From NCBI GenBank assembly GCA_028695135.1, contig JAQVJM010000001.1:13718-77717 (forward strand): DNA of 64,000 bases. Reading direction: 5' to 3'. Source of the stretch: Candidatus Moraniibacteriota bacterium. Lineage in GTDB: Bacteria > Patescibacteriota > Minisyncoccia > Moranbacterales > UBA9337. Below are positions 766 to 41,289 of the stretch, piece after piece; positions within the stretch are counted from its first letter, which is position 1; every line of letters begins with the position of its first letter. Below the pieces are notes generated by a model that was given only the letters and a program-made list of their open reading frames with translations, made no database searches and was not told the DNA's origin. A program made the translations under genes and the position numbers.

Positions 766-879
766 GACTGTCTTTACGAATTACTAATTTATTACGAATA
801 TACGAATGAAATAGTGATTCGAAAGAAATTAATTAAAAATTAGTATATTAGTATAAATTAGTAATTAGTAAAGAAACAC

Positions 880-1347
880 ATGCCAAGAAGAAAGAGAAAA
901 TATCCCAGTCATTGGAAAGCCGATCCAAAATACGGAAATATTTTATTAGGAAGGTTTATAGGTTCTATCATGCTTGACGGAAAAAGAAGCGTAGCCGAAG
1001 AGATAGTATATAAATCCTTCGATATTATCCATGAAAAAACCCAAAAGGGCGGACTGAACGTTTTTGAACAGGCGGTTAAAAACGTATCGCCTCTCTTGAT
1101 AGTTCGATCAAAAAGAGTCGGAGGAACTAATTATCAGGTTCCGGTTCAGGTTTCCGGAACCAAAAGGCAGGCGTTGGCAATGGCATGGATAAAAGAGGCT
1201 TGCAGGAAAAGAAAAGGCAAAAGCATGGCGGAGAAACTGGCAGATGAACTTTTGGAAGCTTCCGAAAAAACCGGGTCAGCCATAAAGAAGAAAGAAGATG
1301 TGCACAAGATGGCTGAATCCAACAAGGCTTTTGCTCACTTCGCGTAG
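880..1347 (+). CDS. rpsG: 30S ribosomal protein S7
   Basis: MPRRK...PKYGN..., 155 aa, canonical S7 N-terminus, located between rpsL and fusA (str operon order). Confidence 0.95.
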   Translation: MPRRKRKYPSHWKADPKYGNILLGRFIGSIMLDGKRSVAEEIVYKSFDIIHEKTQKGGLNVFEQAVKNVSPLLIVRSKRVGGTNYQVPVQVSGTKRQALAMAWIKEACRKRKGKSMAEKLADELLEASEKTGSAIKKKEDVHKMAESNKAFAHFA

Positions 1348-5081: not shown

Positions 5082-5405
5082 ATGGTTAAAAAAGAAGAAG
5101 GACAATCAAGGATCAGAATAAAAATCAAGGCTTACGACAATAAAGTCATTGATCAATCTGCCAAGAAAATAATCGACACAGCGATGCGTTCGGGAGCCGA
5201 AGTTTCCGGTCCGATTCCGTTGCCTACGGAAATCCATAAGACAACCGTTAATAAATCAACTTTTGTGCACAAAAACGCTCGCGAGCAATTTGAAATGAGA
5301 GTGCATAAGCGGTTGATAGATATTTTAAATCCGAAACCAAAGACTATAGACGATTTGACCAGCCTTGATCTGCCGGCGGGTGTTGACATCGAAGTTAAGA
5401 TGTAG
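5082..5405 (+). CDS. rpsJ: 30S ribosomal protein S10
   Basis: [24 protein letters not shown]... typical S10; start inferred at MVKKEEG (5082). Confidence 0.9.
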
Positions 5406-5658
5406 TAGATTTAATAAGAAAATACAACTAGTTAAAGTCCCCATCTCTTGAAAAGAGATGCGAGATACTAAGCTAGCCAGGTGGTACCAAAACTATTTTA
5501 GTTTTTTACTGGCTCTTATCGACCAGTTTTTTTATTTGAATCAGTTTTAGAGATTATCCCGCAACCGATTATAAGAAATTATCTGAAAATCCAGATCCTC
5601 ATTTGTAGAATCGCCTGCGGCTTAATCAGAGTAAATATTTAGATTTTAGATGAAATAG

Positions 5659-5707
5659 GTGCGGGATGCTCATTTTGTAGCTGCTCGCTCCACTCGTAGA
5701 CAAAATG
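5659..5707 (+). promoter_or_regulatory. Conserved leader element GTGCGGGATGCTyATTTT...CTCGCTC upstream of rplC, with a hairpin (cattttgt/acaaaatg, 5671-5707) sequestering the rplC start codon
   Basis: Near-identical motif recurs upstream of rplO (15116-15172). The 8-bp stem's 3' arm contains the rplC ATG (5705-5707); no Shine-Dalgarno sequence present. Confidence 0.4.
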
Positions 5708-6277
5708 AGAAAATTTATACTGGGAAAAAAGATAGGAATGACGACTGTTTATGACAAGGACAAGGGAGCTTTGAATGTTACCTTGATTGAATGCGTTCCT
5801 AATAAGGTGTCCCTTATCAGAAGTGAGGATAAGGATGGATATTTCGCCATTCAATTGAGCATGGAAAAATCCAAGAAGGATGAATTCAAAAAAGAGTTCA
5901 GAGTTTCCAAAGAAGAAGTTGGCTCTTTTAAGGAAGGGGGAGAAATCACATTGGATAAATTCGAGTTGGAGGAGAGAGTGCGCGTTTCCGGGGTGGCAAA
6001 ATCCAAGGGATTCCAGGGCGTTATGAAAAGGCATGGATTTCACGGATCTCCATCTAGCCATGGGCACAGACATGATCATAGGGCGCCTGGCTCTATAGGT
6101 CCGGGATATCCGCAACATGTTTTGAAGGGCAGGAAAATGGCGGGAAGAATGGGAGGAAAAAGAGCGACTACTAAAAATTTAAAGATTGCCCTTATCGACA
6201 GAGAAAATAATATTGTAGGTGTTAGAGGTCCTGTTCCGGGAGTAAATGGGAGAATAGTTGAAATATTTTGTAAATAG
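5705..6277 (+). CDS. rplC: 50S ribosomal protein L3
   Basis: 190 aa; KIGMTTVYD..., FQGVMKRHGF typical L3; S10-operon order. Confidence 0.93.
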   Translation: MRKFILGKKIGMTTVYDKDKGALNVTLIECVPNKVSLIRSEDKDGYFAIQLSMEKSKKDEFKKEFRVSKEEVGSFKEGGEITLDKFELEERVRVSGVAKSKGFQGVMKRHGFHGSPSSHGHRHDHRAPGSIGPGYPQHVLKGRKMAGRMGGKRATTKNLKIALIDRENNIVGVRGPVPGVNGRIVEIFCK

Positions 6278-6279
6278 TT

Positions 6280-6906
6280 ATGAAAATAGCAGTTTATAAT
6301 TTGGAAGGAAAAAAACTGAAAGATATGGAATTATCTGAAGATGTTTTTGGTGTTGAAAAAAATGAATTTCTTTTGCACCAGGTTTATGTAGCTAAAAAAG
6401 CCAACCGGAGAAAGCCGATTGCGCATACCAAAAACAGAGGAGAGGTGGCAGGCTCAGGAATAAAGCCCTGGAGACAGAAAGGGACCGGCAGAGCGAGAGT
6501 GGGATCAGTAAGAACTCCGGTTTGGAAAGGCGGAGGAATAGTTTTCGGACCGACCAAAGAAAGAAATTTCAGCAAGAAAGTCAACAATAGGGCCAATCGA
6601 AAAGCCATAAAGATGGCTCTCAGTGAGAAAGCGAAAAAAGGCAATATGATCGTGGTCGACAGTTTCAAGCTAAAGGAGAAAAAGACCAAAGAATTTGCCA
6701 AAGGAATGGATAATCTGAAATTGAAAGGAAAAATTTTACTGAGTCTGGGAGAAAAGGAAAAGGATGCGTATCTGTATTCAAGAAACATAAAAAACATGAA
6801 ATGCATCCCCGCAAAGATTATAAACGTGATGGATTTGCTCGATTATTCAAAATTACTGATCAGCGAGGACTCGATCAAATACCTGGAAAAAAAGTATAAT
6901 AGATAA
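6280..6906 (+). CDS. rplD: 50S ribosomal protein L4
   Basis: 208 aa; ...KPWRQKGTGRARVGSVRTPVWKGGGIVFGP canonical L4 motif. Confidence 0.93.
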   Translation: MKIAVYNLEGKKLKDMELSEDVFGVEKNEFLLHQVYVAKKANRRKPIAHTKNRGEVAGSGIKPWRQKGTGRARVGSVRTPVWKGGGIVFGPTKERNFSKKVNNRANRKAIKMALSEKAKKGNMIVVDSFKLKEKKTKEFAKGMDNLKLKGKILLSLGEKEKDAYLYSRNIKNMKCIPAKIINVMDLLDYSKLLISEDSIKYLEKKYNR

Positions 6907-6911
6907 ATCGT

Positions 6912-7349
6912 ATGAGTTTATTCGGAAAAAAAGGAGACAATAAAAAGGAAGAAAAAGAAGTTTCTGATAAAAAAGCGGAAGGAAGCGAAGTTAAGATTGA
7001 GAAAGGAGAGGATAAAGAGATTTCTGCCCCAAAAAAATCCAAAAAGATTTTGAATAAAGAATTGGATGGAAGTTTGGCATATGAAACTGTGGTAAAGCCA
7101 TGGATAACGGAGAAGACCCACAGTTTAATGTCAGATGGAAAATATGTTTTCAAGATAAGGAAAGGGATAGATAAAATCCGGATTAAAGAGGCGATCGAAA
7201 GCCTGTACGGAGTGGAGATTGAAAAAATCAACATGGTTAACATCCCTCAAAAAAGAAGAAGATTCGGAAGAATTGAGGGAAAGAAGTCAGGTGTTAAAAA
7301 AGCGATCATCACATTGAGAGAAGGAGAAAGCATAGAATTTTTCGAGTAG
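6912..7349 (+). CDS. rplW: 50S ribosomal protein L23 with ~50-aa Lys/Glu-rich N-terminal extension
   Basis: C-terminal 95 aa match L23 (YETVVKPWITEKTHSL...FKI...KIRIKEAIESLYGVEIEKINMVN); N-terminal KKEEKEVSDKKAEG... low-complexity extension. Confidence 0.88.
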   Translation: MSLFGKKGDNKKEEKEVSDKKAEGSEVKIEKGEDKEISAPKKSKKILNKELDGSLAYETVVKPWITEKTHSLMSDGKYVFKIRKGIDKIRIKEAIESLYGVEIEKINMVNIPQKRRRFGRIEGKKSGVKKAIITLREGESIEFFE

Positions 7350-7451
7350 ATCATGCGGATAAGGATATGAATCGAATCCGAATGATATTCCGATGCAATA
7401 AATATGATTCGTATCACATAACTCGCATATAATTAGAATCAAAATTAGCAT

Positions 7452-7778
7452 ATGTCAAGAAGTTTAAAGAAAGGTCCTTATGTAGATGAAAGATTGATGA
7501 AAAAAATCAAGGACAAACAACCTGGTGACAAGAAGCCGATCAGGACATGGTCGAGAGCTTGCACTATTGTGCCGGAGATGGTGGGTTTTGTATTAGAAGT
7601 GCATAATGGAAGAAAATTTGTCGAAGTCAGTGTTATTGAAGAAATGGTCGGCCATAAATTGGGAGAATTTGCCCACACCAGAACATTCTTGAGACACGGA
7701 GGAAAGATCCAGAAGGAATTAGAATTAGCGGCCAAACAGAAAGAAATCGATTCCGCCAAGGCTGCCAAGACAGAATAA
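7452..7778 (+). CDS. rpsS: 30S ribosomal protein S19
   Basis: [19 protein letters not shown]...[19 protein letters not shown]...HNGRKFVEV...[16 protein letters not shown], canonical S19; note it precedes rplV and rplB (non-canonical order). Confidence 0.93.
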
Positions 7779-7806
7779 TCCCTAAGAAATTTCATATAAA
7801 TTAGCA

Positions 7807-7857
7807 GTTCGCCCGCTTGCGATCCATTCGCATAAGCGTCGCGGGCAGATGAGAATA
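7807..7857 (+). repeat. Copy 1 of a ~50-bp direct repeat / leader hairpin element (gcccgc...cgcataagcg...gcgggc) immediately upstream of rplV
   Basis: agttcgcccgcttgcgatccattcgcataagcgtcgcgggcagatgagaata vs copy 2 at 8550-8600 (~85% identity); both end 3 nt before the start codon; forms nested stem gcccgc/gcgggc. Confidence 0.7.
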
Positions 7858-7859
7858 AC

Positions 7860-8411
7860 ATGAAAGTCAAAGTTAAGGCAAAATTGAATAATTTGAGAAT
7901 ATCCCCGAGAAAGGTAAGGATTTCAGCCGATATGGTAAGAAATTGCAACGCAGGCGAGGCAATCTTTAGATTGAAAAATACGATTAAAAAATCCAACGAG
8001 CCTCTGAAAAAATTAATCGAGAGCGCAATCGCCAATGCAAAAGACAGATATGATCTGAAAACGGATGAATTGAAAATAGCAGATATCCAAGTGGGAGAAG
8101 GAATGACCCTGAAGCGCTGGACCCCTAGAGCCTATGGAAGGGCGACCGAGATTTTGAAAAGAAGTTCTCATATTTATCTGACTCTCGAGGCGGAAACGGC
8201 CGAAGAGAAAAAAAAGAAGAGCAAGAAGAAAGAGGTGAAAATTGCGGATGATAAAACAGAGGGAAAAATCGAAACGGTGGAGAAAGTGGATGTCAAAAAA
8301 GACAAGATAACCGGGGATATTAAAAAAGGACATTTTGAAGTAGAAGGCAAGAGGAAAGAAAGCAGGGAAAAAGGCTGGACAAAGAAGATATTTAAGAGAA
8401 AGTCGATGTAA
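7860..8411 (+). CDS. rplV: 50S ribosomal protein L22 with ~70-aa Lys/Glu-rich C-terminal extension
   Basis: N-terminal 110 aa match L22 (AKLNNLRISPRKVR...IESAIANA...LKIADIQVGEGMTLKRWTPRAYGRA); C-terminal EEKKKKSKKKEVK... extension. Confidence 0.9.
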   Translation: MKVKVKAKLNNLRISPRKVRISADMVRNCNAGEAIFRLKNTIKKSNEPLKKLIESAIANAKDRYDLKTDELKIADIQVGEGMTLKRWTPRAYGRATEILKRSSHIYLTLEAETAEEKKKKSKKKEVKIADDKTEGKIETVEKVDVKKDKITGDIKKGHFEVEGKRKESREKGWTKKIFKRKSM

Positions 8412-8549
8412 ATAGCTACTGCGAAGTACGAACTTATACGGATTTACGAACAAGCGCTGGAAGAATTTAAATAATTTATTTTTAATACAAGAATATAATT
8501 TGAATAAGAATTACATTTGTACATAATTTTGCGGTTCTATATGAGTCGT

Positions 8550-8600
8550 AATTCGCCCGCCTGCAATGCATTCGCATAAGCGCCGCGGGCAGGCATAGAA
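8550..8600 (+). repeat. Copy 2 of the ~50-bp direct repeat / leader hairpin element, immediately upstream of rplB
   Basis: aattcgcccgcctgcaatgcattcgcataagcgccgcgggcaggcatagaata; see copy 1. Confidence 0.7.
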
Positions 8601-8604
8601 TAGT

Positions 8605-9432
8605 ATGGCGATCAAAGTTTATAAAAAGAATAATGCGGGACGGAGAAATATGTCCGTAGTCAAGCCCGAAGGGCTTTCGAAAAATAAGCCGGAGAAATCT
8701 CTGCTAGTTGGACGCGGTAAAAAATCCGGACGTTCTGGAGGAAAGATTTCCGTTCGTCATAAAGGAGGCGGTCATAAGAAAAAATACAGGTTGGTGGATT
8801 TCAAGCAGGATAAATTTGGAATTCCCGGAAAAGTCAAATCTATCGAAAAAGATCCTTTCCGTTCAGCGTTGATAGCCCTGGTTGTTTATGCCGACGGAGA
8901 GAAAAGATATGTTCTAGCTACAGAAGGATTAAAGGAAGGAAAAGAAATAATATCAGATAAAAAGACGCCCTTTAAGAAAGGAAATAGGATGCAGATAAAA
9001 AATATTCCTGTCGGCACCATAATTTCCAATGTGGAAATGGCAATGGATGCGGGCGGCCAGCTGGCCAGGAGTGCCGGTTCGAGCGTTGTGCTTATGGGTA
9101 GTGAAGGGAGAATGGCTCAACTTAAGCTTTCTTCGGGAGAGATAAGGCTGGTAAGCAATGAATGTTATGCGACTATAGGACAAGTAAGCAATTTCGAACA
9201 CGGATCTGTCAGAGTGGGAAAAGCCGGAAGAAAAAGGTGGATGGGAATAAGGCCAGCAGTCAGAGGAACAGCTATGAATCCCGTTGACCATCCGCATGGA
9301 GGAGGAGAAGGAGTTCAAGGAATCGGACTGAAATATCCCAAAACTCCGTGGGGAAAGATCGCACTGGGAAAAAAGACCAGAAAGAAGAAAAAGCATAGTA
9401 ATAAATTTATAGTGAAGAGAAAGAAGAAATAA
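8605..9432 (+). CDS. rplB: 50S ribosomal protein L2
   Basis: 275 aa; [10 protein letters not shown]..., GRNNSG-like [24 protein letters not shown], ...HPHGGGEG; located after rplV instead of before rpsS. Confidence 0.95.
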
Positions 9433-9526
9433 CTGTTGAAATTGTGATAATTGTTGAAGATGTTACAGTAAAATAAATTAGGACAAGCAAAGCGATATAA
9501 CAATTTGGACAACTAGAACAATTAAT

Positions 9527-10168
9527 ATGGGACAAAAAGTCAATCCAAAAGGATTCAGAATCGGAATAACAACCACCTGGCGCTCCAGATGGTTCGGGGG
9601 TAAAGATTATAGAAATAATCTCAAGGAAGATGTAAGCATACGCAAGGGGGTTATGGAAAAATGGAAGCAGGCTTCTATAGCCGATGTTGAAATTGAAAGG
9701 TTCAATAACGAAATACAGATTATTATTTTGACTTCTCGTCCCGGAGTGCTTATCGGAAGAGGAGGAACAGGTGTTGAGGATATCCAGAATTTTGTGAAAA
9801 AAAATTATTTTTCCGGAAAGAAAACCGCCATCAAGATAGAGGTTAAGGAAGTTAAAGATTTCGAATCCAACGCTTCCATTGTCGCCCAGCAAGTGGCCGA
9901 ACAGCTGGAAAAAAGGATGCCTTTCAGAAGAGTTTTAAAAACCACGCTGGATCAAGTTATGGGGAATAAGACAGTCAAAGGCGCCAAAGTGGAAGTATCG
10001 GGAAGATTGGGAGGAGCGGAAATGTCTAGGACCGAATGGCTTTCCAGAGGAACTATTCCTCTTCAGACAATGAGAGCGGATATAGATTTCGCCACAGCGA
10101 CTGCTAACACCACCTACGGTTCAATCGGAGTAAAGGCATGGATTTACAAGGGAGAAATATTTGAATAA
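9527..10168 (+). CDS. rpsC: 30S ribosomal protein S3
   Basis: MGQKVNPKGFRIGITTTWRSRWF..., KH and S3-C domains, 213 aa. Confidence 0.95.
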   Translation: MGQKVNPKGFRIGITTTWRSRWFGGKDYRNNLKEDVSIRKGVMEKWKQASIADVEIERFNNEIQIIILTSRPGVLIGRGGTGVEDIQNFVKKNYFSGKKTAIKIEVKEVKDFESNASIVAQQVAEQLEKRMPFRRVLKTTLDQVMGNKTVKGAKVEVSGRLGGAEMSRTEWLSRGTIPLQTMRADIDFATATANTTYGSIGVKAWIYKGEIFE

Positions 10169-10249
10169 TCTCGTAAAGCATAACGTATAGCGCATAACGC
10201 AATAAATAAAAATGATTTGCGTTTCACGCTCCACGTTTTACGAAATAAT

Positions 10250-10663
10250 ATGCTATTGATGCCAAGAAAAGTTAAATATAGGAAAATGCACAGAGGCGGA
10301 GCCATAAGAGGAAAAGTTTCTCGGGGCGGATCCGTAAGTTTTGGCAGTTACGGACTCAAGGCTATGACGGGGGGGTTGATTTCTGCCAGGCAAATTGAGG
10401 CTGCCAGGCGGGCAATGACGAGACATATCCAGAGAGGCGGAAAAATATGGATAAGAATATTTCCCGATAAGCCAATGACCAAAAAAGGAGACGAGACTCC
10501 TATGGGTAAGGGTAAAGGAGCAGTGGATCATTATGTGGCCAAGATTAAGCCTGGGAAAGTTATGTTTGAGATGGATGGCATAGAAAGAGATGTAGCCCAA
10601 AAAGCTATGGAGCTGGCTTCGCATAAATTAAGCGTCAGAACCAAATTTATAGAAAAGAATTAA
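10250..10663 (+). CDS. rplP: 50S ribosomal protein L16
   Basis: [16 protein letters not shown]... canonical L16 N-terminus; start trimmed to the ATG at 10250. Confidence 0.93.
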
Positions 10664-10697
10664 TAAATCAGCTTATAGCTTTTAGGATAATAATTAC

Positions 10698-10886
10698 ATG
10701 AAAGCCAAGGAATTAAGAGAAAAAAATATCAATGAATTGAAGCGCGAGCTCGAAGAGAAAAAAGAAATTGTGAGACAATTGCGGTTTGATATTTCGCTTA
10801 AGCAGGTTAAAGATCACCGAGAGATCAGAAATACAAAAAGAGAGATAGCCAGACTGATGACTATCATAAAGGAAAGAAGCGAATAA
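10698..10886 (+). CDS. rpmC: 50S ribosomal protein L29
   Basis: 62 aa, MKAKELREKNINELKRELEEKKEIVRQLRFD... typical L29. Confidence 0.9.
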   Translation: MKAKELREKNINELKRELEEKKEIVRQLRFDISLKQVKDHREIRNTKREIARLMTIIKERSE

Positions 10887-10910
10887 TTTTTTAAATAATA
10901 ATTTTTAGAT

Positions 10911-11177
10911 ATGGAAAAAGAAGTGAAAAAAGGAGAAAAAATCCATAATGGAGCAGGAAAGAAAAAAATTACCGGAACAGTTATCAGCGATAAGATGGAG
11001 AAGACCATAGTAGTAGCTGTCGATATTTTTAAGACTCATCCTAAATATTTGAAGAAGTATAAATCCACCAAGAACTATAAAGTTCATGATGAGAAGAATA
11101 AATACAAAGTCGGCGATAAAGTTGAATTTACAAACTCCAAGCCGATCAGTAAGGGTAAGAGGTTTATTGTTTTATAA
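10911..11177 (+). CDS. rpsQ: 30S ribosomal protein S17
   Basis: 88 aa; ...KKITGTVISDKMEKTIVVAV...HPKY.K....K...HDE typical S17. Confidence 0.9.
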   Translation: MEKEVKKGEKIHNGAGKKKITGTVISDKMEKTIVVAVDIFKTHPKYLKKYKSTKNYKVHDEKNKYKVGDKVEFTNSKPISKGKRFIVL

Positions 11178-11335
11178 AATCCCTTCCTGTCCGCAACGTT
11201 TATGCGCGTGCGTTGCAGGAGGGCGAAGTACGAATTTTTAAGGATGCACGAATGGGTATAAGGAAATAAGGGGAATCATAATTTATACTAAATTATTCGT
11301 AAATTTGTATAAATTTGTAATCTATAGAGAATAGT

Positions 11336-11701
11336 ATGATACAAGCAGAGACACAATTGAAAGTAGCAGACAATTCTGGAGCAAAAATTATTGAATGCTT
11401 CAAGGTTTTAGGCGGATCTAGAAGGCGGTATGCTTATATAGGCGATATTATTGTCGCTTCGGTCAAAGTTTCCGAGCCGAGAGGCGCAGTCAAAAAAGGC
11501 GACAAGGTCAGAGCGGTTATTGTGAGACAGAAGAAAAATTTTAGGAGAAAGGATGGTTCATATATAAGATTCGATGAGAACGCGGCGGTGATAGTGGACG
11601 GGATGGAGCCCAAAGGCAGCCGAATTTTCGGTCCGATTGCCAGAGAAATAAAGGAGAAAGGATTTAATAAGATCGCATCCCTGGCAGTTGAGGTATTGTA
11701 G
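11336..11701 (+). CDS. rplN: 50S ribosomal protein L14
   Basis: [17 protein letters not shown]... canonical L14, 121 aa. Confidence 0.95.
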
Positions 11702-11753
11702 CTCCTGCATGCCGGTAGGCAGGTATAAATTCGTAATTTGTAGAGAATATAAT

Positions 11754-12065
11754 ATGAGGATTAAAAAGAGCGATAAAGTAAAAATAATTCACGGAAAAGA
11801 TTCAGGAAAAGAAGGCAAGGTGTTGCGTGTTTTTAAAAGTGAAGGGAAAGTGGTTGTAGAAGGAGCAAATATCGCCAAAAAACATACTCGGCCGAAAAAA
11901 GAAGGTCAAAAAGGACAAAGAGTAGAAGTCGCGATGCCGATCGATGTCTCTAATGTCATGCTGGTATGCCCTCACTGCGGTAAAGTGACTCGGATTGGCT
12001 ATAAGGCAACTGATGGAAAGAAAAGCAGGATATGCAAGAAATGCAAAAAAGAAATAATCAGCTAA
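11754..12065 (+). CDS. rplX: 50S ribosomal protein L24
   Basis: MRIKKSDKVKIIHGKDSGKEGKVLRV... (KOW motif); start trimmed to 11754. Confidence 0.92.
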   Translation: MRIKKSDKVKIIHGKDSGKEGKVLRVFKSEGKVVVEGANIAKKHTRPKKEGQKGQRVEVAMPIDVSNVMLVCPHCGKVTRIGYKATDGKKSRICKKCKKEIIS

Positions 12066-12832: not shown

Positions 12833-12904
12833 AAAACATGTAACCTATAACGCATAACGTGGATCGTTTCACGCTTCACGATATGCGATTTACGACAACA
12901 AAGT

Positions 12905-13312: not shown

Positions 13313-13383
13313 ATTAATCATATAGCGCGTAGCGCACGACCTGGAACGTTCCGGGTTATGCGATATGCGATTCGAGATAAAAT

Positions 13384-14352: not shown

Positions 14353-14470
14353 AAATCCACGAATTTACAAATCTGCTACAAATCTACAAATAAGATAATA
14401 TGTGATATAAAATGTCTAATTTGTATATATGTAAGAGATTTGTATATTTGCGGGGATAATTTCATATTTT

Positions 14471-14986: not shown

Positions 14987-15169
14987 TCATTCGAGGCTTA
15001 CTCCATCCCGCAACTGGTTCCGAGAAGATCTGAAGGCAGGCGGAAGATATATCAAAGCGCCTTCACAAAGTTGCGGTTTGGAATTAATTTATATATAAAG
15101 ATCGGTCAGCGGATCAGTGCGGGATGCTTATTTTTATGGTCACTCGCTCTGCTCGCGGAAAAAAATGGC

Positions 15170-15697
15170 ATGCAGATACATGAATTAAAAGTTAAAGGCA
15201 AAAAGTCCCGCAAAAGGATCGGAAGAGGCGGGAAAAGAGGTACGTATTCGGGCAAAGGGATGAAGGGTCAAAAGGCCAGATCCGGAGGAAATGTCGATCC
15301 TCTCTTTGAAGGCGGACGGACAACGCTCATAGATAAGTTAAAGAAAGTTCGCGGATTTAAGGCTATTGTTGCCAAAAAGAGCGTGGTTAATCTGGAAATT
15401 ATCGACAAAAAGTTTAAAAATGGAGATACAGTAAGCTTAAATGCTCTCGTAGAAGCCGGAGCGGTTCAAAAGAGCAAAGCCGGAAGAGGAGTTAAAATTC
15501 TTGGGAATGGAAAATTGAAGAAAAAACTTTATATTGATAAAGAAATATTGTTATCGAAATCTGCCAAAGAAGCTATTGAGAAAGCCGGGGGTAGCATCGG
15601 CAAAAAATTGGCAAGCGGTAAGGAGAAAGGAAAAATGAAAGAGAAGCCGTCAGGCGAGCCGGCTAAAAAGACGGAGAAAAGAACAGCTAAAAAATAA
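15170..15697 (+). CDS. rplO: 50S ribosomal protein L15 with Lys-rich C-terminal tail
   Basis: MQIHELKVKGKKSRKRIGRGGKRGTYSGKGMKGQKARSG... canonical L15; start trimmed to the ATG at 15170. No rpmD (L30) gene between rpsE and rplO. Confidence 0.9.
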   Translation: MQIHELKVKGKKSRKRIGRGGKRGTYSGKGMKGQKARSGGNVDPLFEGGRTTLIDKLKKVRGFKAIVAKKSVVNLEIIDKKFKNGDTVSLNALVEAGAVQKSKAGRGVKILGNGKLKKKLYIDKEILLSKSAKEAIEKAGGSIGKKLASGKEKGKMKEKPSGEPAKKTEKRTAKK

Positions 15698-15703
15698 TTT
15701 CAG

Positions 15704-15734
15704 ACAGCCCTTAAATGGGCTGTTTTCTTGTTTT
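15704..15734 (+). terminator. Rho-independent terminator after rplO
   Basis: acagccc-ttaaat-gggctgt stem-loop followed by tttcttgtttt. Confidence 0.75.
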
Positions 15735-15746
15735 AAATACGAAATT

Positions 15747-15785
15747 AAACGGCCAAATCAATTAATTTAATTGATTTGGCCGTTT
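15747..15785. repeat. 39-bp perfect palindrome (19-bp arms, 1-nt centre): aaacggccaaatcaattaa-t-ttaattgatttggccgttt
   Basis: Exact reverse-complement arms read directly from the sequence; sits between the rplO terminator and the promoter of the next gene. Confidence 0.85.
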
Positions 15786-15803
15786 AATTCCGTCTTTTTC
15801 CGG

Positions 15804-15832
15804 TTGAAAAAGAGTTTTTTTAGTGATATATT
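15804..15832 (+). promoter_or_regulatory. Putative sigma70 promoter (TTGAAA-17-TATATT) for the 15857 gene
   Basis: ttgaaa aagagtttttttagtga tatatt, 25 bp upstream of the ATG at 15857. Confidence 0.5.
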
Positions 15833-15856
15833 AAGATCACAATATGATAAGTCTAG

Positions 15857-25913: not shown

Positions 25914-28900
25914 ATGAGGATTAACATAAAAATAAAATTATTATTAATAAGCTTTTTTTTCATTGCTTCAGGCGATGTTAAGGCTGATTTTTTCGATCCT
26001 TCTACGATCTATTCTCTTCCGCCTGCCTGGGGGACGGGAAGCCTGTTCACTATCGATCAGGACACTTGGACGGAAACCGATGAGGTGCCGATATATTTCG
26101 CAGATGATCCGGCCGAAGGAGTGACTGGAGGACTCGGCTTAGCTGTTAATCCTTTGACCGGAGAATATTATGCCATCATAAAATCGGCGGATGATTTGCA
26201 AGAAGATCCTGGATATTTAGTAATTCTTGATCCGACTACAGGGGAAGCACAAAGAATAGGGCAATTTTCTACAAGAATAAACAGTTTGGCTTTTGACTCG
26301 AGGGGAAACCTCTACGGAACAGCCGGATTGGGAGATGTGGCGACGGAAGGCCTTTTTTCCATAGATATTTCCGATGCTTCTATTACCAAGATAATGTCTT
26401 TGAGTGAAAGCGATTCAGGAAGAGCTTTGGCATATAACAAGGACGACGGGTATCTGTATTATGCATATGGCGTAGATATCCCCGACTCATGGTATGACAA
26501 GTTCATCGACAAGATAGACATTTCTGATCCGGATAATCCGGCCCTAATGAGTACCTTGGAAGCAGAGCCGAATGTTAATGAACGTCCGATTTCAGCGATG
26601 GTTTACATCGGTGGCGGAGAATTTTTGGCAGGAGATACTTGGTGCTATTTGTATAAGATAGATGTTGCTACAGGTGCTCTCACATACTTGAATGAGACCG
26701 ATGAATGTTCAAAAGGCCTTGCCGTACCTTGGGAAGTGGCATTGAGCGTTTCAAGCCTGAGTCCCGCCGATAACGCGGAAAATGTTTCAACTGGCTCAGA
26801 TTTGGAAATCGTTTTTGGCGATAACGCTTATCAAGGAACAGGCAATATAGTCGTGAAGAAGAGGGGTGATGATTCCGTCGTAGAGACGATAGATGTCTCA
26901 TCGTCCGATGTCACGGGCTGGGGAAGCGCAACTTTGTCGATTGATTTGCAGGACAATCTTCCTGCCAGCACCCACCTTTATGTGAATATCGATTCGGGAG
27001 CGATAAAGAATGCGGATGACGATGATTTTTCGGGAATATCGGACACGACAACTTGGAATTTCACTACCGATAATATAATTATTGAGACAGTTCCTGACGG
27101 AGAATGCTATGAGGTCGGGTCGGCCGAAGCTAGCCAGCCGGCTGACACCGTTCTAGAATATTCAAATGATGATCAGTCGTCCTGGACATATGCTCCGGTA
27201 GATCAAGGAGATGGAGGAGATTGCAATGTGACGGATATCCGTCTCACGTTGGACAGCCAATCTGACTCCGTGGGGGAAGATCTGGAGGCTGAATTTGTGG
27301 GAACTGTCTCGGACACAGAAGTTATCAGCAGTGGTGATGGCGGTGTAGATCTTTTGGAAAATAATCATGGAGCTTATGCTATCGTTACTGAGGAATCTTG
27401 GACTTATAATGTCGGCTATGACATTGAGATCGGAAGCACGGGAGATATTTATACAACTGGAGATTTTGAGGGCGTTACAGATTTTGATCCGACAGATGGT
27501 GAAGATATCCGCACGCCTTATTCAGGTACAGACGTATTTATCACAAAATTCAACGCGGATGGGACTTATGGGTGGACAAGAAACTTCCCGGGGGCTACAG
27601 GAGATCTAAAGCATGGCATGGCACTGGATAGTTCCGATAATGTTTATGTCGGAGGAGGATTTCAAGGAACGGTTGATTTTGACGATGCTGGAGGAACAGA
27701 TGAACACATTTCAGTCGGCTCTAGCGATACTTTTCTTACGAAATATAATTCGGACGGTTCATACGGCTGGACGATCACTTTTGGCGCAACTCAAATAGGA
27801 GGTGTTGCTGTGGATGATTCAGATAATATCTATATCACAGGGGAGTTCAGCCTGACTGCGAATTTTGACGGTACCGGTACTGGTCCGGATGAGCATACCT
27901 CTGTCGGAGACGAAGATATATTCATAACAAAATATAACTCGGACGGTTCATACGGCTGGACAAGAACTTTCGGCGGAACAAACGATGATAGAGGTTATGG
28001 AATTTCCATAGATAGTTCAGGAAGCGTTTTTGCAACCGGTTTTTTTCTGAACACGGTAGATTTTGATGGCACTGACGGAGTGGACAACCACACTTCTTCT
28101 GGCAGTCTTGATACTTTCATAACTAAATATAATCCTGATGGATCATACGTCTGGACCAGAACATTCGGTCCGGATATCGGTTATCAGATCGCTAATGACA
28201 GTTACGGAAATATTTTTGTAGTCGGAAGTTTTTTCGGTTCCCCGGATTTTGATGCCTCCGAACTGACGGAAGATATTCACACATCTGAGGGTTATGAGAA
28301 CGGCTTTATCACTAAATATAACAATGACGGATCATACGGCTGGACGAGGACATTTGGTGAATATGATGAAGATTTTGGATACGGAGTCGCAACGGATGAT
28401 TCCGGCAATGTCTTCATAACAGGAAGCTTTTTTGATACGGTCAATTTTGACGATACCGGCGGAACAGATGAGCATACCTCTGCCGATGATAGTGATATAT
28501 TCATCACCAAATATGATGCTGATGGATCATACGGTTGGACGAGGACTTTCAGCGGTGCGACAGGATATGACGAAGGCTATGACATCGCTACGGATGGTGA
28601 TAATGTTTTTGCAACCGGATATTTCTTAGGCGCGGTCGACTTTGATGATACGGGCGGAGAGGATATCGTTACAACTCCTTCAAATACTATAACCGGCGGT
28701 TTTATAGTCAAATATGCTAATGATGGATCATATGGAACGATATACTCAAAATATTCATTAAGCGGGACTTATGAAACTTCGATAGCCCCCTCATCTTTAT
28801 TGGCCTGGGATAGTTTGGAAATATCCCAAACGACTCCGGCCGGCACGGAAATCGAATATACAATCCTTGACAACACATGCAATAGCATATTGGTCGGACC

Positions 28901-31484
28901 GACGACCGAAACTTCCATAGATATATCTTCTATCGGAATCAGTGAGGATGAATTGTGTCTGAGGGCATCTTTTTCCACTACTGATTCTACGATAACAGGC
29001 GAACTGGAGAGTTGGACCGTCGATTATGAGACAGAGAGAAGCCTTGCGAGCTTCGATTATTCCACCGTAAGCGAAGATGAGCCTGCAGGCAACAGCGCTC
29101 CGACAGACATCTCTCTTTCAATCGATGCGGTTGATGAAGGAGTGGATATCGGCACCGTTGTCGGAACCCTTTCCACCACTGACGCGGACGGGGGGGATAC
29201 GCATACCTATTCATTCGCTTGTGCTACTCCTGGGGCGGATGATGCCAGCTTCCAGATCTCAGGATCGGATCTTTTGACTGATGAAGTTTTTGATTATGAA
29301 ACTAAGACCAGTTATGCTATTTGCATAAGGGCAGATGATGGCAATGGAGGAATCTATGACAAAAATTTCACGATAAATATTACGGATGTGGATGAAAATG
29401 GCAACGATGACACTGACGACACCGACGGAGAAGACGAAGATGAAGATGAAGATGACGACGAATACATAAACCTAAAAAGTTCCAAAGGCGGAAAACTGAC
29501 TTTTGACGTAAAAATTCCGAAAGACACAAAGGTCAAATCGGATTCCATCAAAGAATCCAAGGATGAATCGACAGAAATAAGGAATGTCGGCATCAAGACC
29601 AAAAAAGACAAAAAAGTCAAAGGGGAGCTCACCATAAAAGATAAGAAGGAAAAACCGGAGGATGTCGTCTTTCCGGAAGAGGTGGACCAGTGCACCCCCT
29701 ATCAGATCTTGGACATAGACGCGGAATTTTCCGATAAGGACATCAAGAAAGCGGAACTGACTTTCCGCGTCCCCAAGGGCTGGCTCAAGAAATACGACAG
29801 GGAAACCATGACTTTCGTCATAGGCAAGAAAGCGGCCAACGAGAAGATGCTTGAAAAGAACAAATGGGCCATCGTCCTTTCAAGCAGCTTGGTAAAGACC
29901 AAGGATGGCTATGATATCTATGAGGTTGAATCAGAATCGCTAGACGGCTATTGGGGAGTCTATGGATGCGGAGGAGGAGCAGGAGAGGATCGAGAGAATA
30001 GCGATAATAATAACAATAATGATAACAACATTGATGACAAGTCGCAGAAGAAAAAAGATATCGATAGAGACGGGAATGATGAGATAGCTATCGATCAAAA
30101 CGGAGATATTTCGGACGGAAACACTGACGGATATGAAGAATTCAGCGATCCAGACGGCTCATCTGACGACATCTACAAAATAGATGGGGATCAGGACGGC
30201 CAAACCGATTTCCTCATAGATACCGATGGAGACGGAAGTGCGGATGCCTATTGGGATCCAGATGACGGGATAGCGACCGATACCGGCATCGAAGAGGTGG
30301 ATGGCAAGACCGTGATTGCGATAGATACTGACGGAGACGGAGAATTTGACAGCTACTATTATCCGATAAGAGATGAGATAAGGGAAATAATAGATGTCCA
30401 ATCGAGCGAGAAAGATGATATAATTTCTTCAAATACGGTTAGAACAAGCGATGATAAGATGAATGGAATTATTAAAAATGAAGAGACGATCAGCGCTGTC
30501 TCAATAATAGGTCTCATAACGGGAGCTGGTGCGGTTATGGCTTCAGCCGGAGGAGCGATTCCTCTGGTTCCTTTTGTGCCTAATAATTTAAACTCGTCTT
30601 TTTTTTACAGGATGCTCTCGGCTTTTAAAAGGAGAAGATTTTTCAGTATTTTTCAGCTTATTCCTTTCTCGACGGCAACCTCTAGAGAAAAAATTGCTTT
30701 TCCTTTTGATAGAAAAGGAGAAGATCCTGCGTGGGGAATTGTTTTTGATTCATATACGAAACTGCCTGTTCCCGACGCGCTTGTCCAGCTGGTCGATAAA
30801 GACAGAGGCAAGATGGTTGAGCAAGTGATAACTGACAAAGAGGGAAGATATGGATTCTTAATAAAAAAAGGAGGAGAATATGTCTTAAAGATAAAGAAAG
30901 GAGAATATGAGATTAAGTCTGATGCTGGAAAAGACAGTCTTTATGGAAAAATTTACAGCGATCCGATATCTTTGAAAGAAGGAGAGGTGGCTAAAATAAA
31001 TGTTGCCCTGGAAGCAAAAGGTTTCAATTGGGATGCTTTTTCTGAAAATATGCTTAAGAGATACCATTCCTTTTTCTTGAGGTCGTTCAGCTATTTTTTG
31101 GATACGGTTTACATTTTAGGATTTCTTTTTTCAATATATGCTGTCATGAACTATCCGAATCTCATAAATTATATAATTTTAATATTATATATCGGATTGC
31201 TTGCCTATAAGCTTGTAAAATACTATTCGGCTAAAAAATTCGGTACAATCATAGGCAAAGAAAGCGGGAGGCCTCTTCCTTTCGCTGTCATAGAATTATA
31301 TGACAAGATTACCAAGCAAAGACTGAATTTTACGGTTTCGGATCTCTTGGGAAGATACTACCTTTTGGCTGATAATGGCGAATATATCATCAGAATTAAA
31401 TACTCAAGTAATTCGGAAGATTTTGAGGGAGAAGATAAAATAATCATAAAAGACGGAATTTTTAAGAAGGACTTAGTTGTTTAG
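25914..31484 (+). CDS. Giant secreted surface protein 1 (1856 aa)
   Basis: Signal peptide; SBBP beta-propeller repeats; Ig-like (Big_5-like) domain; cadherin-like repeat; poly-Asp/Glu tract; Ca-binding DxDxDG-type repeats; C-terminal TM/carboxypeptidase-regulatory-like module shared with protein 2. All read from the translation. Repeats are TKYNSDGSYGWTRTFGG..., Ig-like region is SLSPADNAENV...LYVNIDSGAI, cadherin-like stretch is DIGTVVGTLSTTDADGGDTHTYSF, Ca-binding repeats are DTDGDGSADAYWDPDDG. The C-terminal module has a ~330-aa counterpart in the downstream gene. Confidence 0.75.
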   Translation: MRINIKIKLLLISFFFIASGDVKADFFDPSTIYSLPPAWGTGSLFTIDQDTWTETDEVPIYFADDPAEGVTGGLGLAVNPLTGEYYAIIKSADDLQEDPGYLVILDPTTGEAQRIGQFSTRINSLAFDSRGNLYGTAGLGDVATEGLFSIDISDASITKIMSLSESDSGRALAYNKDDGYLYYAYGVDIPDSWYDKFIDKIDISDPDNPALMSTLEAEPNVNERPISAMVYIGGGEFLAGDTWCYLYKIDVATGALTYLNETDECSKGLAVPWEVALSVSSLSPADNAENVSTGSDLEIVFGDNAYQGTGNIVVKKRGDDSVVETIDVSSSDVTGWGSATLSIDLQDNLPASTHLYVNIDSGAIKNADDDDFSGISDTTTWNFTTDNIIIETVPDGECYEVGSAEASQPADTVLEYSNDDQSSWTYAPVDQGDGGDCNVTDIRLTLDSQSDSVGEDLEAEFVGTVSDTEVISSGDGGVDLLENNHGAYAIVTEESWTYNVGYDIEIGSTGDIYTTGDFEGVTDFDPTDGEDIRTPYSGTDVFITKFNADGTYGWTRNFPGATGDLKHGMALDSSDNVYVGGGFQGTVDFDDAGGTDEHISVGSSDTFLTKYNSDGSYGWTITFGATQIGGVAVDDSDNIYITGEFSLTANFDGTGTGPDEHTSVGDEDIFITKYNSDGSYGWTRTFGGTNDDRGYGISIDSSGSVFATGFFLNTVDFDGTDGVDNHTSSGSLDTFITKYNPDGSYVWTRTFGPDIGYQIANDSYGNIFVVGSFFGSPDFDASELTEDIHTSEGYENGFITKYNNDGSYGWTRTFGEYDEDFGYGVATDDSGNVFITGSFFDTVNFDDTGGTDEHTSADDSDIFITKYDADGSYGWTRTFSGATGYDEGYDIATDGDNVFATGYFLGAVDFDDTGGEDIVTTPSNTITGGFIVKYANDGSYGTIYSKYSLSGTYETSIAPSSLLAWDSLEISQTTPAGTEIEYTILDNTCNSILVGPTTETSIDISSIGISEDELCLRASFSTTDSTITGELESWTVDYETERSLASFDYSTVSEDEPAGNSAPTDISLSIDAVDEGVDIGTVVGTLSTTDADGGDTHTYSFACATPGADDASFQISGSDLLTDEVFDYETKTSYAICIRADDGNGGIYDKNFTINITDVDENGNDDTDDTDGEDEDEDEDDDEYINLKSSKGGKLTFDVKIPKDTKVKSDSIKESKDESTEIRNVGIKTKKDKKVKGELTIKDKKEKPEDVVFPEEVDQCTPYQILDIDAEFSDKDIKKAELTFRVPKGWLKKYDRETMTFVIGKKAANEKMLEKNKWAIVLSSSLVKTKDGYDIYEVESESLDGYWGVYGCGGGAGEDRENSDNNNNNDNNIDDKSQKKKDIDRDGNDEIAIDQNGDISDGNTDGYEEFSDPDGSSDDIYKIDGDQDGQTDFLIDTDGDGSADAYWDPDDGIATDTGIEEVDGKTVIAIDTDGDGEFDSYYYPIRDEIREIIDVQSSEKDDIISSNTVRTSDDKMNGIIKNEETISAVSIIGLITGAGAVMASAGGAIPLVPFVPNNLNSSFFYRMLSAFKRRRFFSIFQLIPFSTATSREKIAFPFDRKGEDPAWGIVFDSYTKLPVPDALVQLVDKDRGKMVEQVITDKEGRYGFLIKKGGEYVLKIKKGEYEIKSDAGKDSLYGKIYSDPISLKEGEVAKINVALEAKGFNWDAFSENMLKRYHSFFLRSFSYFLDTVYILGFLFSIYAVMNYPNLINYIILILYIGLLAYKLVKYYSAKKFGTIIGKESGRPLPFAVIELYDKITKQRLNFTVSDLLGRYYLLADNGEYIIRIKYSSNSEDFEGEDKIIIKDGIFKKDLVV
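27414..28794 (+). repeat. Tandem coding repeats (~60 aa units) encoding SBBP beta-propeller blades within giant protein 1
   Basis: Recurring (F)ITKYNSDGSYGWTRTFGG...DxxGNxxxTG units, at least 8 copies. Confidence 0.6.
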
Positions 31485-31635: not shown

Positions 31636-34600
31636 ATGGCCGATTTTAGCGGTGAAAAAATAAATAGGAGAATCCATATCTTCTTTTTTTTGCTTTTTAC
31701 TCTATTTTTATTTGGTAATAGAGCTAATGCATCCCCAGAAGACGATTTCGTGACGACCTGGAAGACAGATAATCCAGGAACTTCAAACAACACTTCAATA
31801 ACTATTCGAACGTCAGGAGGCGGATACAACTACGATGTCGATTGGAACAATGATGGCGTGTTTGATGAATTCGGCATTACGGGAAATGTTACCCATGATT
31901 TTGGCGTTGCCGGGACATATACTATCAGAATAACCGGTGCATTTCCAATGATTCGCTTTGGGGGACTTGGGGATTCAAAAAAAATCTTATCTGTCGATCA
32001 ATGGGGCACGAACCCTTGGGTCTCTATGTCGAATGCTTTTTACGGCTGCAGCAACTTGGAAATAAATGCTATCGACACGCCGGATTTGTCAGGAGTTACC
32101 AATATGGAATATATGTTCAGAGGCGCTTCATCTCTCGATCAAGATATTGGCTCTTGGGATGTTTCGACTATCGAAAATATGTACGGGATGTTCTATGAGG
32201 CCACGTCTTTCAATCAGGATATTGGCTCGTGGGATACCTCAAGTGTTACTGATATGACATGGATGTTTTACGGAGCCACATCTTTCAATCAGGATATCAG
32301 CTCTTGGAATGTATCTAACGTTGTCACGATGTATGAAATGTTCAAAAACGCTATTTCCTTCAATCAGGATATCGGATCGTGGAATGTTTCCACTGTTTCA
32401 AATATGTTTGGCATGTTTCAAAGCGCCACTTCTTTTGACGGTGATATAAGTGCATGGAATACTTCTAGCGTCACAGACATGAGAAGCATATTTAGATTTG
32501 CCACTTCTTTCAACCAGAATATCGGGTTGTGGGACGTTTCGAATATAACATCTACCACAGATATGTTCGGGGGCGCCACTTCCTTTAATCAGGATATTGG
32601 CTCATGGAACTTATCTAACGTCACTGACATGAGAAGAACGTTTGCGGGAGCCTCATCTTTCAACAAAGATATCGGACTCTGGAATGTTTCCAATGTTTTA
32701 TATATGGAAGGTATGTTCGGGGGTGCCACTTCCTTTAATCAGGATATCGGGTCGTGGGATGTTTCCAGTGTCACCGAGATGATCGGAATGTTCAGTTTTG
32801 CTACATCCTTCGATCAAAATATAGGCTTATGGGATACGTCCAGTGTTACCAATATGAACAATATGTTTTATGGCGCTTCATCTTTTAATCAAGACATAGG
32901 AGCTTGGAACGTTTCCAATGTTACCGATATGTATAGAATGTTTTTTGAGGCAGCATCTTTTAATGGAGATATAAGTTCTTGGAATACATCAAGTGTTGTC
33001 AGTATGCGAGATATGTTCAAAAACGCTATTTCCTTCAATCAGGATATCGGATCGTGGAATGTTTCCAATGTATTGTATATGGATGACATATTTGACGGAG
33101 TCTCTTTGTCTGTCGAAAATTACGATGGTATTCTTATTGGATGGAGCTCTTTGCTTTTGCAGAATAATGTAGTCTTTGACGCAGGAGACAGCCAATATTG
33201 TGACGGAGCCGATAATCGGGCTTATATTATTACCACATATAATTGGACAATTTTGGATGACGGACAATATTGTGGTCCGGCAGAATGTGGGGGGGCGGCA
33301 AAAAATTATAAATTCGACGAAACTGACTTCGAGGGAACTTTCTGTTCGGTTGGAACGGAGGATATAGTACCGTCTTTCCCGTCCTATGGAGGAATCATAA
33401 GTTGGACATGCAACTATTATACTGCCAGCATTAGTTGTAGTGCCAGCAGAGATGCGGTCTGTGGTGCGGCTGCTCAAAAATATGATTATAGGGACACTGA
33501 TTTCAACGGATCATTCTGCGCGACCGGGTCTGTTTTGGAGATCCCAACGTTTCCCGAACTGGGTCAGACGGCATTTTGGAGCTGCATATTTGATTCAGGG
33601 GAAGAAATGTGTAGTGCCAACAGACTGGGGTTTTCCAATTTTTACTCCATAGATGATGAATATCTAAGAATGATCGACGAAGATGATTTTGCGGGATTAA
33701 CCTCGGACGAGATTGCTGTTGATACTGCGGAGAATATTTTTTCTGCTCACGGAGCGACGGTTGATCCGACCAATAACGATGTTTATGCCGTTCTTTGGCT
33801 TTCATCTAACGGGCGCAGTTTAGTTAAAATAGACATGGATAATTATGAGGCTGAATTTATTGGAACAATGAGTGATAATTTTTCAAACATCGCTTTTAGC
33901 GATAGCGGAACACTTTATGGCATAACCGGAGACGGCGCAAATATACCATCTTCTCTTTTTGAGATAAATAAAACAGATGCGTCAGTAGTGCTTCTGGCAA
34001 CGTATGAAAGAAATTGGGACGGAGAGGCCATAGCTTTTAATTTTGATGATAGGCGGATGTACAGGGCTAGCGGTAATGATATTTATGCCATTGATCTTTC
34101 TGATGCCGAAAACCTTATAGATATCTCCGTCAATAACGGGGAATTACCATGGTCATCTAATGGTCTGCTGCACAGAGGAAGAGATGACTTTTATGTCGGA
34201 GGAAGTTGGGGTGAAGTATATTCTTTTAATTCATCTACAGAAACAGTTGAATATCTGGGAGACATTAATGATTCAAAGAGTATGTTTTTTTGGCCGCTCG
34301 ATATTCGCATCAGCATAGAATCTCTGTCGCCGCATAACAGAGCGACAGATGTCGCTGTCGATACCGATCTTCGAATAGTTTTTGATAAAGAAGTTTATAA
34401 AGGCGCCGGGAGTATATCGGTTAAAAAATCAAATGGCGGCACAATCGTTGAAAACATTGACATAAACAGAGAAAACATAACCGGTTGGGGAAGTGATACT
34501 CTCCATATAAATTTAGTCAATAGTTTAGAATATGAAACATCTTATTACGTAGACATAGACAGTACGGCTATAATGGATGTGCATGGTAATCCCTTTGCTG

Positions 34601-41106: not shown

Positions 41107-41121
41107 ATTTAATATTATTCC

Positions 41122-41274: not shown

Positions 41275-41289
41275 AAATCCGATAATTTT

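Follow-up and report, generated by a model that had tools for sequence, protein, structure and literature searches.

The order L23-L2-S19-L22-S3 of the ribosomal protein genes rplW, rplB, rpsS, rplV and rpsC is near-universal, being common to bacteria, archaea and plastids. Where adjacent blocks of genes have been transposed, the usual model is tandem duplication followed by random loss, which is described for animal mitochondrial gene orders. Among short palindromic elements, the Correia elements of Neisseria (CREE or NEMIS; RUP and BOX are similar miniature inverted-repeat transposable elements, or MITEs) are intergenic, 100-160 bp long, bounded by inverted repeats and co-transcribed with their neighbors; they can form long hairpins cleaved by RNase III, can carry outward promoters, vary in presence among strains, and are found in hundreds of copies genome-wide with TA target duplications. 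The repetitive extragenic palindromes (REPs) of enterobacteria, with the mosaics they form (BIMEs) and the REPINs mobilized by RAYT transposases, are short GC-rich imperfect palindromes in transcribed intercistronic spacers that can affect mRNA stability. Here we describe a 64,000-nt stretch of DNA (hereafter the window; positions 13,718 to 77,717 of contig JAQVJM010000001.1, assembly GCA_028695135.1) in which the order of the S10 cluster is changed by displacement of rplB, and in which two copies of a ~50-nt hairpin-forming direct repeat directly precede rplV and rplB. An earlier note on this DNA, made from the sequence alone, had correctly taken the host for a member of the Candidate Phyla Radiation (CPR); it belongs to Candidatus Moranbacteria.

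Three ribosomal-protein clusters, str, S10 and spc, lie in the window, and the host is low in GC (~40%). Open reading frame (ORF) calling together with Pfam matches gives the order L23-S19-L22-L2-S3, with all genes on the plus strand, in agreement with the non-canonical order rplW-rpsS-rplV-rplB-rpsC that the earlier note had read. The genes and spacers concerned are the following.

6280-6906, plus strand: L4 (ORF and Pfam)
6912-7349, plus strand: rplW (L23), the final gene ahead of the rearranged block (Pfam PF00276, E 4.8e-28)
7350-7451, plus strand: L23-S19 spacer, new junction 1, an adjacency not in the canonical order
7452-7778, plus strand: rpsS (S19; Pfam PF00203, E 2.3e-34)
7860-8411, plus strand: rplV (L22; Pfam PF00237 on residues 7-109 of 183)
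8412-8604, plus strand: L22-L2 spacer, new junction 2, occupied by a palindromic cassette of the FamC type described below
8605-9432, plus strand: rplB (L2), the displaced gene (Pfam PF00181 and PF03947)
9433-9526, plus strand: L2-S3 spacer, new junction 3
9527-10168, plus strand: rpsC (S3), the first gene past the rearranged block (Pfam PF00189 and PF07650)
10250-10663, plus strand: L16 (ORF and Pfam)

Three of these proteins carry Lys/Glu-rich extensions outside their Pfam domains: ~55 aa at the N-terminus of L23 (6912-7349), ~25 aa at the C-terminus of S19 (7452-7778), and ~70 aa at the C-terminus of L22 (7860-8411).

The order is not peculiar to one assembly. Loci from other genomes and contigs are designated here by L numbers. 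An identical L2 protein is encoded on two independent contigs, L001 (JGI metagenome 3300014206) and L002 (NCBI metagenome-assembled genome, or MAG, GCA_028718005.1), both of which align to the window collinearly and without gaps; identity is 99.86% for L001 (6 single-nucleotide polymorphisms, or SNPs) and 99.92% for L002 (3 SNPs). Four NCBI MAGs named Candidatus Moranbacteria bacterium have consecutive accessions for their L22 and L2 proteins. The comparison of gene order in related CPR genomes that the earlier note had proposed finds the rearrangement clade-wide, and the canonical order in other Moranbacteria. All 11 lineages fetched from the list of L2 homologues (L2 identity 70-84%) are rearranged, including the 2012 genome ACD_7C and GW2011_GWE2_35_2-, and some have the order on at least 24 contigs; when L008 is added, the count becomes 12 of 12 related lineages besides the window's species, spanning L2 identities of 68-84%. 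Among 80 GTDB species representatives, a sample with at least 14 Moranbacteria-type genomes among the matches listed, 78 loci are canonical (12 of Moranbacteria type and all 66 from other phyla), one is rearranged (L008), and one (L007) ends just after rplB. Thus, rplB directly follows rplW in 13 other Moranbacteria-type loci, 12 with the full canonical order plus L007.

The change has the signature of a transposition: three adjacencies are broken (L23-L2, L2-S19 and L22-S3) and three gained (L23-S19, L22-L2 and L2-S3), orientation is unchanged, and every gene is retained, with rpsS, rplV and rplB each single-copy in the window. All our trees are distance-based. In a neighbor-joining tree of seven ribosomal proteins from outside the rearrangement, the rearranged taxa (n = 11) are monophyletic with 94% bootstrap, and a 10-protein neighbor-joining tree supports the same clade at 97%. 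L2 taken alone has too little signal to recover the rearranged clade (5% bootstrap), while recovering the Moranbacteria-type set as monophyletic at 100%; rplB has therefore been inherited vertically, without foreign replacement. Together these data point to a single ancient same-strand transposition as a synapomorphy of one Moranbacteria subclade. The blocks rplB and rpsS-rplV would have been exchanged in the ancestor of the subclade, and the window would have inherited the result. The simplest route would be for rplB-rpsS-rplV to have been duplicated in tandem and for one of the two copies of each gene then to have been lost, because each step leaves all genes functional. This resembles the tandem duplication-random loss of animal mitochondria in its same-strand exchange of adjacent blocks with all genes kept, and differs from it in that no pseudogene remnants are left in the window's three new junctions, so that the mechanism cannot be demonstrated from them. 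Comparison of four spacers with L23, S19, L22, L2 and S3 by blastx found no lost-copy remnant (nothing below E = 0.3); specifically, no rplB remnant was detected in the L23-S19 spacer (best E 1.5), and no S19 or L22 remnant in the L2-S3 spacer. Since the event is old, this absence is expected and does not exclude duplication and loss.

The repeat and its hairpins lie as follows.

7808-7857, plus strand: repeat copy 1, in the S19-L22 spacer, ending 2 nt before the rplV ATG (repeat search and blastn)
8552-8602, plus strand: repeat copy 2, in the L22-L2 spacer, ending 2 nt before the rplB ATG (repeat search and blastn)
7811-7846, plus strand: GC-rich stem-loop 1 (GCCCGC...GCGGGC), a 36-nt palindrome 13 nt upstream of the rplV ATG
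8555-8590, plus strand: GC-rich stem-loop 2, a 36-nt palindrome 14 nt upstream of the rplB ATG

Without gaps, 7808-7848 and 8552-8592 are identical at 37 of 41 nt; with one gap allowed, blastn extends the similarity over 52 columns (86.5%), up to 2 nt before each ATG. The ~50-bp direct repeat that had been proposed at 7807-7857 and 8550-8600 was thus essentially right, and the description of a GC-rich, hairpin-forming element fits predicted folds at about -19 kcal/mol (-19.6 for copy 1 and -18.6 for copy 2); the inner folds predicted for the two copies differ. The repeat reaches to 2 nt before each start codon, where the earlier note had given 3 nt, and the hairpins proper stop 13-14 nt before it. 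“Duplicated translational leaders” had been one suggestion; duplicated sequences do lie directly upstream of start codons, and “duplicated leaders” is a fair name for them. The degenerate 41-mer occurs exactly twice in the 64 kb (0.00 expected from shuffles), as does the pattern GCCCGC-N15-40-GCGGGC (0.01 expected). The element has no further copy in the window and none in a scan of metagenomes with the hairpin 3' half, where true copies were met only on a contig equal to this locus, with the caveat that the remainder of the genome is possibly poorly assembled in that collection; the 20 other contigs matched are attributable to chance (49-68% GC). Among three assemblies the hairpins have zero SNPs, compared to 9 elsewhere in the aligned region. 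At the rplV and rplB leaders of L083, L085, L087-L089 and L112-L117 the hairpin is absent, so that it is not conserved at orthologous position. The hairpins are directly followed by AGATGAGAATAAC (copy 1) and AGGCATAGAATAGT (copy 2). We considered and rejected intrinsic termination, because a U-tract does not follow; a terminator scan gives no plus-strand site at the hairpins.

The hairpin appears to be part of a larger element. Over its length, the window's L22-L2 spacer shows homology to the S19-L22 and L22-L2 spacers of L083, which themselves share a 145-nt direct repeat (90%), and to a cassette in the S17-L14 spacer of L115 (E 2e-5 to 5e-3). We built a profile, FamC, from the shared 3' part (TTCGTAATTTCGTATAAGTTTGTAATTCGTAGAGAATAAC-ATG) and applied it with nhmmer to 883 kb of sequence, in which the relatives' loci are centered on ribosomal protein genes and so bias where cassettes seem to occur. 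Plus-strand matches always end at a ribosomal protein ATG (S19, L22, L2, L14, L24, L29, L5, S3 and S7, in various genomes), while in these spacers the minus-strand matches begin a few nt past the upstream stop codon; the matches are therefore parts of cassettes with inverted arms. Such a cassette, 80-190 bp in size, consists of ~35-nt inverted arms of TTCGTAA-like heptads and an AT-rich core with the conserved block GAATTTGAATAARWAATTACA...; the two arms within one cassette share variants not found in other cassettes. The corresponding features of the window are these.

8419-8450, minus strand: left inverted arm of the L22-L2 cassette (TACGAA heptads), 7 nt after the rplV stop codon (FamC nhmmer E 6.5e-4)
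8500-8527, plus strand: promoter-like TTGAAT-N16-CATAAT in the conserved AT-rich core (consensus scan)
11296-11338, plus strand: paralogous FamC right arm without a GC hairpin, abutting the rplN ATG (profile seed)
11715-11755, plus strand: paralogous FamC right arm abutting the rplX ATG, with a short GC hairpin before it at 11704-11723 (profile seed)
771-882, plus strand: FamC-like cassette filling the S12-S7 spacer, with its left arm at 771-806 (minus) and its right arm at 843-882 (plus)

The left arm at 8419-8450 and the L083 right arm, the latter read in reverse complement, agree at 28 of 33 positions, and the block around 8500-8527 is conserved in L083, L085 and L115. The arms of the S12-S7 cassette match FamC at E 0.0029 (left) and 0.0013 (right), and this spacer folds with z = -7.8. 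Five of the six FamC matches in the window fall within ~17 kb of ribosomal protein operons. The GC hairpin is a module joined to a FamC arm: the junction of copy 2, TCGTAATTC followed by GCCCGCCTGCAA (also written TCGTAATTC followed by RCCCGCCTGCAA), is common to the window and L083 at 20 of 21 positions (L083 8645-8625), where it lies in a different spacer (S8-L6) and in opposite orientation, and leads into a hairpin whose arms are the same and whose loop differs. For copy 1, window 7788-7820 aligns to the L083 FamC arm and hairpin junction at 27 of 33 positions (E 0.002). Presence varies between sisters, the spacers beside rplV measuring 171 and 189 nt in L083 versus 25 and 35 nt in L089.

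Repeated spacers are widespread in the group. Of 21 Moranbacteria-type loci, 14 (8 of them canonical in order) have direct repeats between spacers within the operons, with lengths of 25-160 nt and identities of 78-96%. In L013 an 87-nt repeat (91%) flanks rplB at its canonical position, in L011 ~100 nt are common to three spacers (88-96%), and several leader families recur ahead of different genes in different genomes. Spacers have a median length of 36 nt in Moranbacteria compared to 19 nt in other phyla, with 41% versus 17% reaching 50 nt or more, and a fold with z < -2 is predicted for half of the Moranbacteria spacers that reach this length. Shine-Dalgarno sites are not used in the genome: only 3 of 63 window genes have GGAG, GAGG or AGGA at -20 to -4, which is the chance rate, and the 63 starts are instead preceded by 52-68% A at -6 to -2 and 63% T at -1.

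A second conserved leader of ~50 nt, FamB (GGTGCGGGATGCTCATTTTTGTAGCTACTCGCTCCGCTCGTAGACAAAA-ATG), stands in the window at 5658-5706 (before rplC) and 15117-15172 (before rplO, L15), and elsewhere in L005 (4944-4991, 6050-6106 and 7658-7712), L003 (5932-5988), L004 (6812-6868) and L083 (964-1017). Its nine nhmmer hits (E 1e-7 to 3e-18) are all on the sense strand and only in Moranbacteria loci, and with one exception they end no more than ~25 nt from a ribosomal protein ATG (L3, S3, S17, S19, L16 or L15). A hairpin is predicted, with a few pairing-preserving changes and no Rfam match. FamB may represent a cis-regulatory RNA or a promoter module that has not been described.

Palindromy extends to most spacers of the window's ribosomal protein clusters, in which palindromes fill nearly the whole interval between a stop codon and the following ATG; long imperfect examples with z = -3 to -7.8 lie at 766-879, 10169-10249, 12833-12904, 13313-13383 and 14353-14470. 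They are made of short tandem units (TACGAA, ATAACGC and ACAAATC), and in several CGAAT in the 5' arm opposite ATTAG in the 3' arm produces regularly spaced G-A mismatches. At 299 nt, the S10-L3 (rpsJ-rplC) spacer (5406-5704) is of unusual length, as it is throughout the Moranbacteria-type loci (121-309 nt), and it contains a conserved terminator-like hairpin with a T-run, for example at 5508-5533 (ACTGGCTCTTATCGACCAGTTTTTTT) and, in L006 and L009, CTGGCTGAGAAGCCAG with a T-run; it could act as an attenuator within the S10 operon. Downstream of rplO, a 159-nt spacer (15698-15856) folds at -57.7 kcal/mol (z = -9) and has two perfect long hairpins with T-runs, which are probably terminators of a spc-type operon.

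The best explanation overall, which we favor with some reserve, is that an inherited transposition is combined with paralogous cassette ends that act as a leader. The evolutionary part of this reading, inherited transposition plus paralogous cassette ends, we regard as quite probable. The two repeat copies would be paralogous start-proximal ends of a palindromic cassette with an optional GC stem-loop, such cassettes being copied from spacer to spacer within the genome by gene conversion or duplication; that both window copies have the same nested GC hairpin is explained by one having been copied from the other. The functional part, in which the hairpin is a determinant of RNA processing or stability and an insulator, is a tentative proposal; it is the role that we find most plausible, though we would not call it likely. 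The cassette would be transcribed within the operon, or from the TTGAAT-N16-CATAAT site of its AT-rich core. Lying 13-14 nt ahead of a non-Shine-Dalgarno start, the hairpin would act at the RNA level on processing or stability, and as a structural insulator it would keep the A-rich start region single-stranded, so that the output of rplV and rplB would be tuned relative to their neighbors.

Several observations weigh against this combined reading. The hairpins fold only marginally better than GC-matched shuffles (z = -1.8 and -0.95), and the four differences between the copies disrupt predicted inner pairs, with none compensatory. Palindromy is equal on both strands, which is as compatible with an element at the DNA level as with an RNA structure, and a comparison of sense and antisense folding in 122 Moranbacteria spacers found no RNA-specific (G-U) signature, the median z being about -2 for either strand. 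A sigma-70 scan counts as many promoter-like sites in the region as chance would give. Terminal inverted repeats do bound a non-coding element of 80-200 bp, but the focal right arm is interrupted by the hairpin and weakly matched: with the hairpin deleted, the focal copies score 4.6 and 3.5 bits on FamC, compared to a shuffle maximum of 6.9, and their assignment to FamC follows from the junction common to L083 and from the significant left arm, not from the right arm itself. Finally, filled (L083 and the window) and empty (L088 and L089) spacers share no flanks, which makes an insertion boundary or target duplication undefinable.

The chief alternative holds the cassettes to be selfish or neutral intergenic repeats (MITE or REP/BIME type) that are tolerated at the few sites of a tight operon where they cause no damage and that play no part in expression; we consider this rather unlikely though worth serious attention. 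The cassettes' inverted arms, their size of 80-190 bp, their several copies per genome with a subfamily that varies by genome, and the difference in presence between the sisters L083 and L089 are all as such elements would have it, as are the strand-symmetric palindromy and the lack of covariation between the two repeat copies; moreover, any insertion into a short spacer inevitably abuts stop and start codons. Yet the concentration of FamC matches in the ribosomal protein operons of the window, the supply of a conserved A-rich, ATG-adjacent sequence (AGAATAAC/ATG) at many different genes, and the conservation of the AT-rich core across genomes whose ribosomal proteins differ by ~30% are less easily accommodated. 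No target-site duplication was found (filled and empty spacers lacking common flanks), neither a RAYT gene nor any other transposase was identified, the window ORFs not having been scanned for transposases, and the hairpin has only its two copies in the window and metagenome scan.

The comparison with described elements is likewise mixed, although the cassettes appear most like Correia-type MITEs or REP/BIME mosaics. They share with Correia elements the inverted arms, a comparable length, a putative co-transcription with their neighbors, possible promoters and patchy presence; unlike those elements, they are seen almost only in ribosomal protein operon spacers (where the sampled loci are centered), show no visible target duplication, and have arms of TTCGTAA heptads of which the right one supplies the ATG-adjacent sequence. 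The resemblance to REP/BIME lies in the focal hairpins, as 36-nt GC-rich imperfect palindromes in intercistronic spacers that form mosaics with further motifs, and in the FamB and FamC ends, which have a GTAG-containing terminus (CGTAGAG/CGTAGAC) of putative role. The focal hairpin differs in having two copies rather than hundreds, with no high-copy dispersal in the window or the metagenome scan, and in lying upstream of a start codon, whereas REPs lie just after a stop codon.

A more far-reaching version of our reading, which we put forward as a speculation with the odds against it, is that co-opted cassette families deliver a start-proximal leader, and perhaps a promoter, to non-Shine-Dalgarno ribosomal protein genes and are exchanged by gene conversion, that unequal recombination between cassettes broke the L23-L2-S19-L22-S3 order clade-wide, and that the GC hairpin is a functional RNA processing or stability module.

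Ribosomal protein autoregulatory leaders, such as the E. coli S10/L4 leader and others with Rfam families, are also structured and directly upstream of genes of the S10 and spc clusters, and the hairpin might be an operator that mimics rRNA, binds L22, L2 or another ribosomal protein, and was duplicated for shared feedback. Its position directly upstream of two ribosomal protein genes, its identity across three assemblies, and the homologous hairpin in L083 with conserved arms and divergent loop would suit an operator, but we judge this improbable. Rfam has no match at the gathering score in the 64-kb window, where its scan also finds no rRNA gene, and none at E <= 5 in 5300-11800. The rplB leader has no BLAST match in any complete E. 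coli genome, rRNA included, which is a weak test of rRNA mimicry. The hairpin is missing from the orthologous leaders of close relatives, that of L083 being in another spacer and on the opposite strand; one inner fold is not common to both copies, covariation is absent, and the cassette serves different genes in different genomes.

The earlier note had proposed that the repeats may mark the rearrangement breakpoints. As a substrate or scar of the rearrangement, they would have moved rplB or rpsS-rplV by recombination. Copy 2 does lie within a genuine new junction (L22-L2), long direct repeats between operon spacers exist in the phylum and could drive unequal crossing-over, and canonical-order L014 has similar sequence in its L23-L2 and L22-S3 spacers. 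Copy 1, however, lies in the S19-L22 spacer, an adjacency that is intact in the canonical order too and that the rearrangement left unbroken. Canonical-order Moranbacteria such as L013, L011, L005 and L003 likewise have direct repeats of 50-160 nt between ribosomal protein spacers. Ribosomal proteins differ by ~30% within the clade at whose base the event is placed, yet the copies are 90% identical. Six members of the clade (L008, L088, L089, L112, L113 and L115) have the rearranged order with no repeat around rplV and with short spacers on both sides of it (19-46 nt, with L088 reaching 72 nt), and L085 has a related leader at S19 and L22 and a different one at L2. Recombination between direct repeats flanking rplV would, moreover, delete or duplicate rplV, not transpose rplB. 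The same order without repeats is thus ancestral to the lineage, though the hairpin is not the common dispersed repeat that had been considered alongside that outcome. The idea that the repeats mark breakpoints is largely refuted, and we give it very little credence.

Weakest of all is the possibility that the order or repeat is an assembly artefact: mis-joins can occur at repeats in short-read metagenome assemblies, and the earlier note had raised the concern, but the same order in at least three independent assemblies of the species and four NCBI MAG annotations, and on dozens of contigs from 12 related lineages, most without the repeat, excludes misassembly for practical purposes.

Elsewhere in the window, a spacer between two minus-strand genes (40963-41289) contains, at 41059-41289, three copies of a ~60-nt GC-rich hairpin with the core CTGCAACGGTGTTGGGTGCCCGTTGCAG, and folds at -126.6 kcal/mol (z = -9.4); a related hairpin (GCAACG...CGTTGCAGG) lies at 11181-11223 in the S17-L14 spacer. 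Two large ORFs have internal repeats: 25914-31484 (1856 aa) contains tandem coding repeats of 189-195 nt at 27504-28732, and 31636-36159 (1507 aa) contains at least 12 tandem 75-nt units at 32038-33092. Both probably encode repeat-domain surface proteins.

We found no description of the rearranged order, or of these repeats and cassettes, in the literature; public genomes have contained the order since 2012-2015, so it had been available to see but, as far as we found, had not been described. A clean, single-origin exception to one of the best-conserved gene orders known is a rare genomic change, diagnostic for a subclade of Moranbacteria, and a natural experiment indicating that the L23-L2-S19-L22-S3 order is not obligatory for ribosome biogenesis. 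To our knowledge, CPR bacteria are not culturable and little is known of their transcription and translation signals. Ribosomal protein operons, normally tight, here have long spacers of repeated palindromic cassettes that abut non-Shine-Dalgarno starts. These cassette-filled spacers point to an undescribed layer of operon organization or gene expression in CPR bacteria, which may outweigh the gene-order finding.

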